Assembly: GCA_900542295.1 (NCBI GenBank)
Contig: UQNJ01000005.1
Location: 51,162 to 115,161, forward strand
Reading direction: 5' to 3'
Origin: an uncultured Eubacteriales bacterium
GTDB taxonomy: Bacteria > Bacillota > Clostridia > Peptostreptococcales > Anaerovoracaceae
DNA: 64,000 bases
Made by a program: the position numbers and the translations under genes. Under the pieces are notes generated by a model that worked only from the letters and a program-made list of their open reading frames with translations, ran no database searches and was not told where the DNA came from. Numbering within the stretch: the stretch's first letter is position 1; every line of letters begins with the position of its first letter. Positions 22,106-28,306 of the stretch are shown piece after piece.

Positions 22106-22534
22106 CTACGGTCTGTCTAAAATAGTGGAAAACACAACGGAAGTCTCAGTCTTCCCGAATTTTTGAAGTTTACCCATAAATGCATCCAATAATCCTGTCG
22201 AAGAAAAAATTACTTTAAGAAGCATTGAATATTCTCCCGTTATATGATTTCCCTCCAGAACACACTCGTGTTTGTTTATGAAATCATAAAATTCCTGACT
22301 TTTTTCGGGAGGTACACTTACCAATATAAATGCCTTTATTCCATATCCCAACTTCTCCATATTAAGTTTGGCATGAATTCCTTCTATATAACCTTCTCTT
22401 TCCAGCTTATCTATTCTTGCCGCTACTGCAGGGGTAGTTAAAAATACCTCTGAAGACAGGTCTTTCAAAGACATTCGGCCATTAGCCCTAAGTGATTCTA
22501 TTATTTTCAAATCGATTTCATCAAGACTTTTCAT
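22106..22534 (-). CDS. Lrp/AsnC-family transcriptional regulator
   Basis: N-terminal HTH LDEIDLKIIESLRANGRMSLKDLSSEV and a RAM domain. 142 aa. Confidence 0.85.
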   Translation of the reverse strand: MKSLDEIDLKIIESLRANGRMSLKDLSSEVFLTTPAVAARIDKLEREGYIEGIHAKLNMEKLGYGIKAFILVSVPPEKSQEFYDFINKHECVLEGNHITGEYSMLLKVIFSSTGLLDAFMGKLQKFGKTETSVVFSTILDRP

Positions 22535-22537
22535 TTT

Positions 22538-23773
22538 CTATAATCCGCATCTTGCCATTGCTGTCTTAATCTTAGCCGGCATGAGCCTGCACTCCTTTTC
22601 AGTATTGGATGAAACAGATACTCTGATTCCCTGTCCTAAAGTTACTACATAGACATTATCCTTCTGAAGTTCTTCGCTCACTTCTTCTGCCTTAGCGCAT
22701 GGAACAGTTATGAAGAATCCTGAGTCATAAGGGCATATTTTAAGGTCTGCTGCAGCAGCCCCCTCCATAAAGGCTTTTCCTCTCTTTTGAAGTATCTCCA
22801 TATAAATATCACGCTCATCTGTGACACCGGCAAAAAGCTCTTTATTTCCCATTATGTCCGAAAGAACGGTCATCGCTGCTCTATTTCCGTTTGACCAGGA
22901 ACCCCTACATTCCACACTCATAATATCTTTAAATTCTTTAGCTGTCTCTTCATCAGGAGCCATGCAAATCAATGCACCTAATCTCATTCCATACATAGTA
23001 TATCCTTTTGATGCGGAGAAGGCAATAAGCGGAAGCATATTTGCAGGCGGATTTTCAAGCTTTTTAAAGAATTTTCTGTATTCTGCAGCATCACCTGCAA
23101 AATCCAGATATGCTATGTCTGTCAAGATCACAACCTTTTTATCATGAAGCTTCTTTACAACCGAAATCAAATTATCCCAATCCTCTAATGTAAAAGTATA
23201 TCCTGTGGGATTGTGTGCAGGAGTATTTACAATTACCAGAACCTGCTCCTGAGTTTCAAGCAGTTTCAGAAGAGAATCTTCAAATGAATCGACATTAAAT
23301 TTACGATCATTGTCAAAAAGCTTGTATGTAGTAATTTCCCTGCCGATTTCTGAAGCAATTATGCTGTATGGGCTCCAATGCCAGTCGGAAGTCAAAACCT
23401 TATCACCGACAGCAGTGTATGCAGATATTGCATTTCTTATGGCTCCCGTTCCTCCGGGAGTATAGCAGGCCTCAAGAAAAGAGTTCGGCATCTCATCAAG
23501 GAAAACCGCCTTTTTAACTGCTTCTATATAGTCAGGTGTTCCAAGAATAGGTGCATAAGCCGCATAATCCTCCGGTTTAAGTTTATGTATACATTCGGTT
23601 ACAGAGTCTAAAACCACTAAATCACCGTCATCATTCATCAACACACCTATAGTTGAATTTATAACATTATCTCTGCCTAAAGCAGCAGTCTTTGCCTTAG
23701 CCTTCTGAGAAACTCCAAATAATTTATCGGGTGCTCCTATATTTTTTCTTCCGTTTTCTTTTGCGAAAATCAT
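22538..23773 (-). CDS. PLP-dependent aminotransferase class I (aspartate/aromatic aminotransferase type), paralog of 58644-59891
   Basis: PLP-lysine motif SASKGYTMYGMRLG. ~411 aa. The start is taken at MIFAKENG after RBS AAAGGAG. An upstream ATG at 23791 is also possible. Confidence 0.8.
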   Translation of the reverse strand: MIFAKENGRKNIGAPDKLFGVSQKAKAKTAALGRDNVINSTIGVLMNDDGDLVVLDSVTECIHKLKPEDYAAYAPILGTPDYIEAVKKAVFLDEMPNSFLEACYTPGGTGAIRNAISAYTAVGDKVLTSDWHWSPYSIIASEIGREITTYKLFDNDRKFNVDSFEDSLLKLLETQEQVLVIVNTPAHNPTGYTFTLEDWDNLISVVKKLHDKKVVILTDIAYLDFAGDAAEYRKFFKKLENPPANMLPLIAFSASKGYTMYGMRLGALICMAPDEETAKEFKDIMSVECRGSWSNGNRAAMTVLSDIMGNKELFAGVTDERDIYMEILQKRGKAFMEGAAAADLKICPYDSGFFITVPCAKAEEVSEELQKDNVYVVTLGQGIRVSVSSNTEKECRLMPAKIKTAMARCGL

Positions 23774-23794
23774 TCTATCTTCTCCTTTCATTTA

Positions 23795-26349: not shown

Positions 26350-26721
26350 CTATGCCACTACAGCAATTTCCTGTCCCATGTCTACTGAATCGCCTTCTCT
26401 TACAAAAAGCCTGTTGACTCTGCCGTCACAAGGAGCTACAACCGGTATCTCCATCTTCATTGACTCCAAAACCAATATACTGTCGCCTCTCTTTATGTTA
26501 TCGCCCTCTGAGGCAACTATCTTCCATACTTTCCCTGCGGTTCCCGCTGTCACCTTACTTCCATTTTGCGGTTGACTTTCCTTTTCCCCGATATTTTTTC
26601 TCACATCATGCCTGCTTTCTCTGCTTTCAGTCATGTCTATTCCTGTATCGTTTGCCTCACTTCTTTTTTCCACTTCCACTTCGTATTCCACTCCGTTGAC
26701 TCTTATTGTATACTTCTCCAT
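26350..26721 (-). CDS. Biotin carboxyl carrier protein (biotinyl domain) of the decarboxylase complex
   Basis: The C-terminal biotinyl domain has the motif ILVLESMKMEIPVVAP (biotinyl-lysine in the MKM context). A Pro/Ala-poor linker lies upstream. Confidence 0.8.
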   Translation of the reverse strand: MEKYTIRVNGVEYEVEVEKRSEANDTGIDMTESRESRHDVRKNIGEKESQPQNGSKVTAGTAGKVWKIVASEGDNIKRGDSILVLESMKMEIPVVAPCDGRVNRLFVREGDSVDMGQEIAVVA

Positions 26722-27027
26722 TTATTTGCCTCTCTTTCTGATTGTTCTGACTACATACTCATCAAGGTTAAAATCTTCCTGATTATTTGCATTTTCCCTG
26801 TTAAATGCAGCAATTGCCGCCCCTATAACTGCCATTATCTCCTCTGAGCCTGTATTTTTTTCCTCTTCTCTGCCTGTTTCTTCTGCCTGATTTTTAGAAT
26901 TTTCTTTATCCGGCATGAATTTAAACAAATATATTACAAAGCTAATAATCATAAGTATTAAAAAAACTGTTCCCATGCCCAGCAACGTATCAACGCCTGC
27001 CGACTCAAGTATCTCCATTACAGCCAT
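26722..27027 (-). CDS. Decarboxylase gamma/delta small membrane subunit (OadG-like)
   Basis: A single TM helix GMGTVFLILMIISFVIYLF followed by a charged tail. The start is at MAVMEIL after RBS AGGAGG, just downstream of the preceding stop codon. Confidence 0.65.
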   Translation of the reverse strand: MAVMEILESAGVDTLLGMGTVFLILMIISFVIYLFKFMPDKENSKNQAEETGREEEKNTGSEEIMAVIGAAIAAFNRENANNQEDFNLDEYVVRTIRKRGK

Positions 27028-27043
27028 GTGCTCCGAGCCTCCT

Positions 27044-28306
27044 TCAATATGTCCCATAAAATGTCTCAAAGGCACCGATAACATATTTTCTGCTTTCTTC
27101 AGGATCTATAGCCTTGTCTGCATAGCCTCTTTCAAGAAGAAAGTCCACATTGCAGCAGCTATGTTCATACTCGGCGGCTTTGTCAGATATATCAGCAGGT
27201 TTTAAGCCCGGACAAATTATAGACACTGCCTGATTTGGATTTATCATCATGACTCTGGCCTGCGGCCATGCAAAAACCACATCCATTGCAAAAGCCTTGC
27301 TTCCCATAAGTGTATATCCAAGCCCTGACCAATCTCCCATCAATATGCTCACCTTTGGTACCTTTGCCTTAACAATGTTTTCTGCCAATTGGCACAATGC
27401 TTTTATCATTCCCGGCTCTTTAGCTCCTTCCATATCAACTCCGCAATTGCTGCCTGCCGACAGTATGCCTATATTAAAGCTGCTGCACAGATTTATAAAT
27501 TGAGCAATCTTTTCGACATCTTGAACATCCATCCACAAATCGCCTTTTTCCCCTGTTCCGCCGACAACAGCTCCCACAGTTCTGCCCGCAAGCCTTATAA
27601 ATGCCGTGACTGTTTTCATACCTATCCCCGGCTTATATTCCTGTATGAATCTGTCGTCTGAAATTTCCTTAAGAAAGTCAACCGGACTAATGTTTTCTTC
27701 TCTCATGCCTTTACATAATCTGTTCAAGTCATCTTTAATATCACCCGGCTCATTTTCTCTCTCCTTTGATAAAGGCAAAATATCAAGAAGGCGGCTGATA
27801 ACATTTGGATTTTCTGTTTTACCTCTTTCAAGGATAAAATCAGCTGTCTCTGCCAATACAGCCATACTGCCTACAGAACTTTTATCCTTTATAATTATCT
27901 GAAGAACTTTTGATTTTGCTTTCAGCACTTCTTTATACAAATCTGCAAAAGCTTCCAGCCCATCAACTGCCTCTTCTATTCTGAATCCTTTTGAATTTAT
28001 AATCCCTATAACAGGAGCACCTGTTTTCTGTGCCATTTTGTACAATCTTTTAATCTTGCCTGCATGTGCAGCTCCCACAGTGCCTCCCATAACATCCTCA
28101 TCCTGACAGAAAATAAATACTGCCTTTCCGTTCACTGTGCCATACCCGGTAACTACACCGTCAGAGCCGAAGACCACTTCAGGACTGTATATGGAGGTTT
28201 CTTTATCACAGGCTCTTGCTCCTATTTCAACAAAGCTTCCTTTATCCATAATATCTAAGACTTCTTTAAGCCCTTTTGTCATATTTTTTCTTTCTTTTCT
28301 TAACAT
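27044..28306 (-). CDS. Acyl-CoA carboxyltransferase subunit (methylmalonyl-CoA/glutaconyl-CoA decarboxylase alpha-like, crotonase-fold carboxyl transferase)
   Basis: The N-terminus LDIMDKGSFVEIGA...GVVTGYGTVNGKAVFIFCQDEDVMGGTVGAAHAGKIKRL is typical of the PccB/MmdA/GcdA carboxyltransferase domain. 420 aa, which is short for the family. Confidence 0.75.
   Translation of the reverse strand: MLRKERKNMTKGLKEVLDIMDKGSFVEIGARACDKETSIYSPEVVFGSDGVVTGYGTVNGKAVFIFCQDEDVMGGTVGAAHAGKIKRLYKMAQKTGAPVIGIINSKGFRIEEAVDGLEAFADLYKEVLKAKSKVLQIIIKDKSSVGSMAVLAETADFILERGKTENPNVISRLLDILPLSKERENEPGDIKDDLNRLCKGMREENISPVDFLKEISDDRFIQEYKPGIGMKTVTAFIRLAGRTVGAVVGGTGEKGDLWMDVQDVEKIAQFINLCSSFNIGILSAGSNCGVDMEGAKEPGMIKALCQLAENIVKAKVPKVSILMGDWSGLGYTLMGSKAFAMDVVFAWPQARVMMINPNQAVSIICPGLKPADISDKAAEYEHSCCNVDFLLERGYADKAIDPEESRKYVIGAFETFYGTY

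Follow-up and report, generated by a model that had tools for sequence, protein, structure and literature searches.

An operon in an uncultured bacterium of the family Anaerovoracaceae encodes the parts of a Na+-translocating biotin-dependent decarboxylase together with two carboxyltransferases (CTs) of different structural class. It lies on contig UQNJ01000005.1, within a stretch of 64,000 nt that we call the window, and positions given here count from the first letter of that stretch. We consider it moderately probable that the operon specifies a split Na+-translocating oxaloacetate decarboxylase tied to aspartate catabolism, in which the second CT, a relative of the 12S subunit of transcarboxylase, is mainly an assembly core or an altered enzyme. 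A check of gene order in other genomes, which a sequence-only reading of the window had called for, showed that the arrangement is not peculiar to this genome: the hybrid operon is the usual layout of a large uncharacterised family in Lachnospiraceae and their relatives.

Seven co-directional minus-strand open reading frames (ORFs) make up the operon, which runs from 28306 to 22106 and is packed with intergenic gaps of 0–21 nt (Table 1). From 5' to 3' they encode an acyl-CoA-type CT, an OadG-like protein, a biotin carrier, OadB, an OadA/5S-type CT, an aminotransferase and an AsnC regulator. Domains were assigned with Pfam and NCBIfam models, which together with the ORFs upheld the gene content and order first read from the letters. 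They also upheld the proposed architecture of 12S-, 1.3S- and 5S-like proteins joined with OadB and an OadG-like anchor. The starts used for oadG and the aminotransferase gene are those of the gene caller on identical public contigs, and the AsnC gene begins 3 nt past the aminotransferase stop codon. Identical proteins are present in human-gut metagenome assemblies and metagenome-assembled genomes; public labels for the identical acyl-CoA-type CT are merely 'carboxyl transferase domain-containing protein' or 'hypothetical protein'.

Table 1. Operon genes and associated sites in the window (called starts are listed first, longest ORFs in brackets).
Feature	Position	Strand	Product length	Basis
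Acyl-CoA-type (PccB/MmdA/12S-type) two-domain CT	28306..27044	-	420 aa	PF01039
OadG/MmdD-like single-span membrane anchor	27027..26722 (longest ORF 27084..26722)	-	101 aa	PF04277
Free biotin carrier, 1.3S/MmdC/OadD type	26721..26350	-	123 aa	PF00364
OadB/MmdB/GcdB-type carboxybiotin decarboxylase and Na+ pump subunit, integral membrane	26337..25213	-	374 aa	PF03977
OadA/PycB/5S-type oxaloacetate-pyruvate CT	25201..23795	-	468 aa	HMGL-like, PYC_OADA
Aspartate/aromatic-family (AspC/TyrB-like) pyridoxal phosphate aminotransferase	23773..22538 (longest ORF from 23791)	-	411 aa	PF00155
AsnC/Lrp-family regulator, last operon gene	22534..22106	-	142 aa	PF13412, PF13404, PF01037
Hairpin and T-run upstream of the CT gene	28339..28380	-		Site scan, pair counting
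Promoter-like site TTGACA-17-TATTTT	28365..28337	-		Site scan
Intrinsic-terminator-like hairpin closing the operon	22039..22019	-		Site scan

The five-gene core recurs across many genomes in a fixed order. A scan of a collection holding one genome per species returned at least 80 loci; counts from it are lower bounds, and the window's own species is not among the matches listed. In nearly all loci complete enough to judge, the core is colinear as CT, OadG, biotin carboxyl carrier protein (BCCP), OadB and OadA. The families that carry it, among the matches listed, are Lachnospiraceae, Vallitaleaceae and Anaerovoracaceae, with loci from Butyrivibrio, Blautia, Faecalicatena, Hungatella, Lachnoanaerobaculum, Stomatobaculum and Mediterraneibacter. 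Every neighbourhood fetched had the same core order, in sister species, a Lachnotalea-type organism and two further lineages, and all seven genes, with a short CT, also occur as an operon in a cultured species, Emergencia timonensis SN18 (locus L017). Because the order recurs in nearly every sufficiently complete locus, the hybrid gene set is not a product of chance. Close homologues of the 420-aa CT are rare, forming four 90%-identity clusters plus one 453-aa relative; beyond them lie thousands of 460–485-aa 'carboxyl transferase' proteins at ~34% identity, many of them named Lachnospiraceae. In full-text literature, searched without many of the subscription-journal papers, we found no decarboxylase or transcarboxylase in which CTs of both classes occur alongside OadB.

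The proposed oxaloacetate decarboxylase is divided over separate genes in this operon. The OadA-like protein scored 685.8 bits against PRK12331 (cutoff 718) and 674 against the domain model PRK09282 (cutoff 402). It matched solved structures of PycB (5KS8, 7e-146), the CT domain of Vibrio cholerae OadA (2NX9, 2e-132) and 5S (1RQB, 2e-119). Its metal-binding and catalytic motifs are kept, namely the Asp of RDAQQS, the Lys of IKDMAG, the His-x-His of HLHSH, and VTPSSQ. The protein ends 17 residues past the PYC_OADA domain and has neither association nor biotinyl domain. In the carrier, a charged linker separates an N-terminal YTIRVNGVEYEVEVE segment from a biotinyl domain with ESMKME (PF00364, 62 bits); the protein's top solved match is transcarboxylase 1.3S (1DCZ), followed by MmdC. 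Residues 2–121 of the carrier align to positions 480–593 of 595 in the OadA model PRK14040, and residues 4–116 to PycB 497–608. The entire carrier corresponds in alignment to the last ~115 residues of OadA and PycB, and we therefore read the OadA-like protein and the carrier together as a split OadA. The biotinyl domain that the OadA-like protein was first thought to have lost is indeed absent from it, not by simple loss but as the free carrier.

The membrane subunits are those of a Na+-translocating decarboxylase. OadB scored 511 bits against PF03977 and 473.7 against TIGR01109 (cutoff 190.6), matched Salmonella OadB (6IVA) at E = 3e-111 and keeps the GGADGPT, AGVSAVPM and HAMGPNVAG motifs. 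It is 92–97% identical among sister species, with a ratio of nonsynonymous to synonymous substitution rates (dN/dS) of ~0.03 or less (0.025). The OadG-like protein passed both of its cutoffs (PF04277, 59.6 bits against 27; TIGR01195, 37.1 against 36.05). Its C-terminal motif AVIGAAIAAF...YVVRTIRK, in a protein that terminates YVVRTIRKRGK, belongs to a family pattern, AVI.AAIAA...(F/Y)VVR(S/T)I(R/K), found in 62 of 72 OadG-like members. Most Lachnospiraceae loci (L019 1483-2319, L021 9392-10237, L022 9388-10200, L032 9444-10331 and ~55 others) carry longer OadG-like proteins of 240–295 aa. Their N-terminus resembles a signal or lipoprotein sequence, and an additional domain of ~150 aa, presumably extracytoplasmic, precedes the transmembrane helix; they also contain a linker rich in Ala and Pro and, at the C-terminus, the conserved VVRSIR motif. 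As far as sequence can tell, the OadA-like protein, OadB, the carrier and the aminotransferase all preserve their catalytic residues.

The aminotransferase plausibly feeds oxaloacetate from aspartate, as the sequence-only reading had suggested. It scored 148.7 bits against PRK09257, under the cutoff of 377, and reached no curated AspC/TyrB threshold. Aspartate aminotransferase (AspAT) and TyrB matched it at ~1e-21, with a phmmer alignment to 1AAW spanning query residues 34–381. In an alignment to E. coli AspC, all AspAT hallmark residues are present: K256, R264, R290, R384 and D219 are the counterparts of K258, R266, R292, R386 and D222, and Y222, N188 and W133 those of Y225, N194 and W140. 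The two carboxylate-binding arginines among them (equivalents of R292 and R386) argue for the dicarboxylic substrates aspartate and glutamate. A second class I/II aminotransferase on the minus strand of the window (58644..59891) is 46% identical over 407 residues to the operon enzyme, which suggests that the operon holds a dedicated copy. The AsnC regulator combines a helix-turn-helix with a ligand-binding domain, evolves at a dN/dS of 0.018, and shares 94–96% identity with the proteins of the two nearest sister species and 82% with that of the third (L003).

Genes added to the core by relatives also bear on the substrate. Among the matches listed, aminotransferase and AsnC genes were added only in the CT clade that holds the Anaerovoracaceae-named loci. 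Both follow the core in the window clade, in L013 and in L017 (E. timonensis); L025 has the aminotransferase only, and L018 has an aminotransferase downstream and an AsnC match upstream on the opposite strand. Phosphoenolpyruvate (PEP) carboxykinase, another oxaloacetate enzyme, adjoins the core in further loci, and we count it in favour of oxaloacetate as the substrate. An ATP-type gene lies directly downstream in L012 (13054-14634), and a GTP-type gene with a PucR regulator directly upstream in L013 (3370-5133) and L014 (4744-6507). Both L013 and L014 also carry ADI/DDAH-like and argininosuccinate-lyase-like genes.

Together these components outline a path from aspartate to a Na+ gradient. 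The AspAT-like aminotransferase would convert aspartate and 2-oxoglutarate to oxaloacetate and glutamate. The OadA/5S-type subunit would then load the carboxyl group of oxaloacetate onto the biotin of the free carrier, releasing pyruvate, and OadB, held by the OadG-like anchor, would decarboxylate the carboxybiotin and export Na+. The AsnC-type regulator probably sets operon expression in response to an amino-acid signal. In the window lineage, the acyl-CoA-type CT would be mainly an oligomeric core on which the carrier and the 5S-like subunit assemble, in the manner of 12S in transcarboxylase, or else an enzyme of altered specificity. Anaerovoracaceae are amino-acid fermenters.

The same parts could in principle run in the opposite direction, a Na+ gradient reversing OadB so that it carboxylates biotin, the OadA/PycB-like subunit then turning pyruvate into oxaloacetate and the aminotransferase turning that into aspartate, with AsnC as a biosynthetic regulator. 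Na+ decarboxylases have been made to run backwards in vitro, amino-acid biosynthesis is often under the control of AsnC/Lrp regulators, one NCBI record labels the OadA-like protein 'pyruvate carboxylase subunit B', and its top solved match is PycB. We nevertheless hold anabolic flux to be highly improbable. Oxaloacetate decarboxylation releases ~27–30 kJ/mol, so only a large Na+ gradient can drive it backwards. By the ORF list and Pfam, the operon genes include no biotin carboxylase (PycA), and the 46%-identical aminotransferase paralogue could serve biosynthesis instead. The PEP carboxykinase beside the core in relatives likewise fits a catabolic role at the oxaloacetate node.

The first gene of the operon encodes a CT that by sequence and predicted fold is of the PccB/MmdA/12S type. 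It matched PF01039 (175.8 bits) and, as the top NCBIfam hit, the mmdA model TIGR01117 (190.9 bits, cutoff 998.8), in two stretches each, and solved PccB-type chains in the PDB at ~1e-47. An AlphaFold2 (AF2) model (pLDDT 85.6, pTM 0.86) retrieved the beta subunit of propionyl-CoA carboxylase, AccD5 and 12S in Foldseek with query-normalised template modelling (TM) scores of 0.85–0.88; 12S 1ON3 gave 0.86–0.88 at E = 1e-34. The GcdA chains 3GF3 (E = 4e-7) and 1PIX (2e-4) matched residues ~37–112 only. Of the 'MmdA/GcdA-like' identity first given to the protein, the MmdA half holds and the GcdA half falls away.

Membership in the PccB/AccD5 structural family, and an NCBI homologue named 'acyl-CoA carboxylase subunit beta', would also suit a CT that works independently of the pump. 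It could, for example, serve as beta subunit in an ATP-dependent acyl-CoA carboxylase with its biotin carboxylase encoded elsewhere, and have no more than a transcript in common with the decarboxylase. Gene order makes this very unlikely. The succession CT, OadG, BCCP, OadB is exactly the mmdA-D-C-B one, the 5S-like gene joins it in the same order in nearly all loci, which come from several families, and the CT stop codon lies 16 nt from the called oadG start. No biotin carboxylase was present in the Pfam-called neighbourhoods or in the nine recurrent flank clusters inspected. The CT is an inherited and obligatory-looking member of the operon family in Lachnospiraceae, Vallitaleaceae and Anaerovoracaceae.

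In the window, this CT has lost structure beside the acyl-CoA site. Three differences account for its shortness: ~35 N-terminal residues fewer than in solved PccB-type chains, an internal deletion of 41 residues after the ADF strand, and the absence of the C-terminal K(K/R)HG (KKHG) tail. Of the C-terminal subdomain, for which the sequence-only reading asked for a check, the tail is missing; the internal loss falls in the N-domain. We compared the AF2 model with one of a canonical Lachnospiraceae homologue, P0118 (pLDDT 86.6). The deleted segment is a single beta-alpha-beta unit adjoining the N-domain oxyanion loop; it comprises strand 159–161, helix 181–187 and strand 193–195 of P0118 and directly follows the strand after that loop. 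The spacing between the invariant residues F157 and P178 tracks the deletion across the family, at 20 in the window clade, 19 in Emergencia, 52 in four related loci, 58–62 in Lachnospiraceae loci and 65 in the canonical outgroup locus L096 (MFITGP...LGGA..H).

Motifs of both CT domains have changed as well. The N-domain oxyanion motif, CGGG(L/M) in the family, reads SVGSM in the window; its canonical form is CAGGA, in which the backbone NH groups of the two Gly residues make up the acyl-CoA oxyanion hole of PccB. The C-domain oxyanion motif GSAY, corresponding to the canonical GGAY of the biotin oxyanion hole, has become GLGY, and the ANR motif, equivalent to a canonical ANQP, has become VVGG. 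CGGG, GSAY, ANR and KKHG are all kept in Lachnospiraceae CTs. Scores against TIGR01117 step down in parallel, from 456 and 401 bits in Lachnospiraceae homologues through 289 and 270 in intermediates to 194 in P0005 and 191 in the window. P0005 is the CT of sister species L003 (2869-4230) and has a charged low-complexity insertion of 35 residues (...YPGHGGGLNADDESGSKRRSETSSEGSPERTLERL...) between its two CT domains. That locus also has a transposase (rve) gene ~640 bp upstream of the operon. In our view the window CT is not a canonical carboxyltransferase for methylmalonyl-CoA or malonyl-CoA; on the evidence of its sequence, the window-clade protein is non-canonical and its handling of CoA esters doubtful.

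The altered CT gene is nonetheless not decaying. Its dN/dS was 0.16–0.18 in three comparisons, which indicates purifying selection, it retains 100 of 182 family-conserved positions, and its altered motifs are fixed within the window clade. The other operon enzyme genes (OadB, OadA-like and aminotransferase) gave dN/dS values of 0.013–0.09, and CT identity to three sister species is 75, 63 and 46% against 88, 85 and 73% for the OadA-like protein. A control over 74 loci accounts for this faster rate: at 85–90% OadA identity, CT identity averaged 0.69 within the window clade, against 0.70 elsewhere, and scaled to OadA divergence the CT is the fastest-evolving catalytic subunit family-wide. We therefore dropped relaxed selection or a fast rate as a sign of decay. 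In a neighbour-joining tree of CTs, the window clade, Emergencia and the four loci with 52-residue spacing form one clade; root-to-tip distances are 0.77–0.88 for that Anaerovoracaceae-type clade, 0.86–0.88 for the window clade itself, and 0.58 at the median in other loci. A role as assembly core would explain why the CT is under selection despite a deletion beside the acyl-CoA site.

Several points weigh against an aspartate-fed decarboxylase with a mainly structural CT. The retention of 100 of 182 positions and the clade-fixed motifs fit an altered active enzyme as well as they fit a scaffold. Exchange of Gly for Ser or Leu at the oxyanion motifs need not abolish catalysis because oxyanion holes use backbone NH groups, and the rate of the CT, fast across the whole family, is by itself no evidence of lost function. 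The substrate of the aminotransferase is suggested by its residues, and its nearest solved relatives, 3RQ1 and 4EMY, are deposited just as 'Aminotransferase class I and II'. The flux direction, catabolic or anabolic, is likewise judged from context only, and we found in the literature no activity measurement for any member of the operon family.

These points leave room for a machine in which both CTs work. Carboxybiotin derived from oxaloacetate would pass either to OadB and the Na+ pump or, through the 12S-like CT, to an acyl-CoA, for example converting acetyl-CoA to malonyl-CoA without ATP; conversely, carboxyl groups of methylmalonyl- or malonyl-CoA could feed the pump. For the window we regard such dual activity as possible but rather unlikely, and it is more plausible for the canonical Lachnospiraceae proteins, which retain all four CT motifs. 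Three transcarboxylase-type parts are encoded separately around one carrier, the CT is the first gene in nearly every locus, and it is under purifying selection with conserved clade-specific motifs. Two loci, L064 and L094, consist of CT, BCCP and 5S-like genes with no OadB match, a soluble transcarboxylase-like version. In the window clade, the deleted N-domain unit and the changes to both oxyanion motifs speak against acyl-CoA turnover, as does an MmdA score of 191 where the cutoff is 999. Neither in the operon nor among the annotated window ORFs did we see genes that produce or consume acyl-CoA, and no mutase or epimerase occurred among those ORFs. The transcarboxylase grafted onto a Na+ pump, or dual-substrate decarboxylase, that the sequence-only reading proposed thus has its parts in place, but the window CT, by deletion, motifs and score, is the least canonical of the family.

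Gene neighbourhoods in Lachnospiraceae gave no clue to an acyl-CoA substrate. When flanking ORFs of ~85 loci were clustered, only housekeeping and regulatory genes emerged: ScpA/B, RecA/RecX, YebC-like, PBP5, RpiR-type and TetR-type regulators and an HI0933-like flavoprotein. Such housekeeping flanks, free of acyl-CoA pathway genes, would fit a central metabolic role for a system with two working CTs.

The operon matches no characterised mmdABCDE, gcdABCD or oadGAB operon, in agreement with the sequence-only reading for the first two. The closest precedent for its split architecture is the membrane oxaloacetate decarboxylase of Enterococcus faecalis, experimentally established to comprise OadA without a fused carrier, a separate biotin acceptor OadD, OadB and an OadG-like OadH (PMC6193673). 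These four correspond to the OadA-like, BCCP, OadB and OadG-like genes here. The E. faecalis system has no acyl-CoA-type CT and is encoded within a citrate lyase (cit) cluster that a GntR regulator controls, whereas the window operon has the fifth gene, the CT, and an aminotransferase and AsnC regulator in place of citrate lyase genes. None of the latter flank the operon or occur among the other annotated window ORFs. OadGAB of Klebsiella, Vibrio and Salmonella shares the OAD_gamma anchor, an OadB near 6IVA and an OadA CT domain near 2NX9, but fuses biotinyl and association domains to OadA, where the window has a separate carrier gene and an extra CT. The C-terminus of OadG in OadGAB has a His-rich Zn site, at the place where the window protein ends YVVRTIRKRGK.

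The CoA-ester systems supply the remaining parts. Propionibacterium transcarboxylase likewise has members of the 12S, 5S and 1.3S families as separate polypeptides, and the VNG..Y.V.V segment at the N-terminus of the window carrier is of the 1.3S type. Transcarboxylase is built around the 12S hexamer, and the N-terminus of 1.3S tethers 5S dimers to this core. That enzyme is soluble and has no OadB or OadG, whereas the window operon has both, with oadB and oadG set between the CT, carrier and 5S-like genes; unlike transcarboxylase 12S, the window protein has 41 residues fewer by the acyl-CoA site and altered oxyanion motifs. The MmdABCDE systems of Veillonella and Propionigenium share the protein families and the order CT, OadG-like delta, carrier, beta. 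They have no 5S/OadA-type subunit, and in the window operon no MmdE was identified and the CT scores 191 bits, without the canonical motifs and intact N-domain expected of MmdA. Glutaconyl-CoA decarboxylase, GcdABCD, has a GcdA-type CT, which the window protein is not.

A related soluble cluster in Clostridium thermocellum offers a further parallel, likened to the window operon by description only. It also contains a biotin carrier and a 5S/OadA-like gene and is not known to include an OadB, and L064 and L094 resemble it. Like the window operon, it starts with a carboxyl transferase, the 56-kDa Cthe_0699 (PMC3039559). Cthe_0699-0701 / Clo1313_1523-1526 has been listed as an oxaloacetate decarboxylase (PMC3561251), and a metabolic model treats Clo1313_1523-1526 as a putative malonyl-CoA-forming transcarboxylase because the organism has no standard acetyl-CoA carboxylase (PMC5414155). 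The latter proposal supports acyl-CoA transfer by the CT, but as the filling of a model gap, not as biochemistry. On close gene sets, the literature otherwise gave only locus-tag listings.

A promoter-like site and a terminator bracket the operon. A leader hairpin with an 18-bp stem followed by a T-run lies ~30 nt upstream of the CT start codon and overlaps the promoter-like site. Across four species with near-saturated synonymous sites, the 134-nt region upstream of the CT gene is 81% identical. Explicit pair counting showed that compensatory changes maintain the stem in all four, and TTGACAT is invariant in its loop. The hairpin is a candidate operator around the -35 box, attenuator, or leader or retained terminator; an Rfam search of the operon and leader returned no match. 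An invariant AAAACTTAA.AAAAT.AAG box lies ~45 nt upstream, and the conserved non-coding region reaches ~28440. At the other end, the closing terminator is GC-rich, a strong hairpin (AAGCCGCCGCAATGGCGGCTT) followed by a T-rich tail. Between the promoter-like site and this terminator no terminator-like site has a comparably strong stem; the single internal minus-strand match, at 25453..25440 within oadB, has a stem of 5 pairs.

Directly upstream of the operon and in the same orientation lies a seven-gene island (28486-37214, minus strand). It encodes an IclR regulator, an NhaC-family transporter, a TRZ/ATZ-type amidohydrolase, a CapA/MslH-like protein and an EamA transporter, with an allantoinase/hydantoinase-like cyclic amidohydrolase (TIGR03178, 367 against 358 bits) and a hydantoinase/carbamoylase-family amidase (TIGR01879, 352 against 204). 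Similarity to the ergothioneine-utilisation genes ErtD and ErtE was sub-threshold. The island could free an amino acid, for instance aspartate or glutamate, from a hydantoin or N-carbamoyl compound. It is present in sister species L015 and absent from L001 and L003, where the operon is intact; we therefore rejected it as an obligatory feeder and see at most an optional link.

The rest of the window holds a mixture of metabolic and housekeeping features. A glycyl-radical enzyme of 792 aa (PFL-like and Gly_radical domains; 587-2965, minus strand) is adjoined by a divergent AraC/cupin regulator (3236-5098, plus strand). An amino-acid-metabolism neighbourhood at 6005-13987 includes an EamA transporter, an amidohydrolase, a sigma-54 activator, an SNF-family Na+ symporter (10006-11433) and an arginase-family protein (13076-13987); the symporter could use a gradient made by the decarboxylase. 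A large-type bacterial signal recognition particle RNA (17434-17619, 104 bits) and an S10-Clostridia ribosomal-protein leader (53993-54067, minus strand, 41.9 bits) complete the list. The 64-kb window has no tRNA genes.

The operon family adds a second carboxyltransferase to a textbook means of energy conservation by decarboxylation. To our knowledge, every characterised Na+-translocating decarboxylase has a single substrate-defining CT; here a CT of another structural class is fixed in the operon across at least 80 loci, many of them from gut and rumen Lachnospiraceae. We speculate, as an unlikely and tentative extension, that the five-gene core is a membrane-anchored 'carboxybiotin hub' that distributes oxaloacetate carboxyl groups to OadB and Na+ export or to acyl-CoA, combining ATP-independent malonyl-CoA synthesis with a bypass from PEP through PEP carboxykinase and oxaloacetate to pyruvate. 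As part of the same speculation, the acyl-CoA half would have been reduced to a pseudo-enzyme scaffold in the window lineage as the system specialised on aspartate. If both CTs work, the oxaloacetate node, membrane energisation and acyl-CoA carboxylation would be joined in one machine, and the ATP yields and malonyl-CoA supply modelled for these bacteria could change. The window CT, without an active-site-proximal unit yet under selection, is a candidate for an enzyme turned scaffold.

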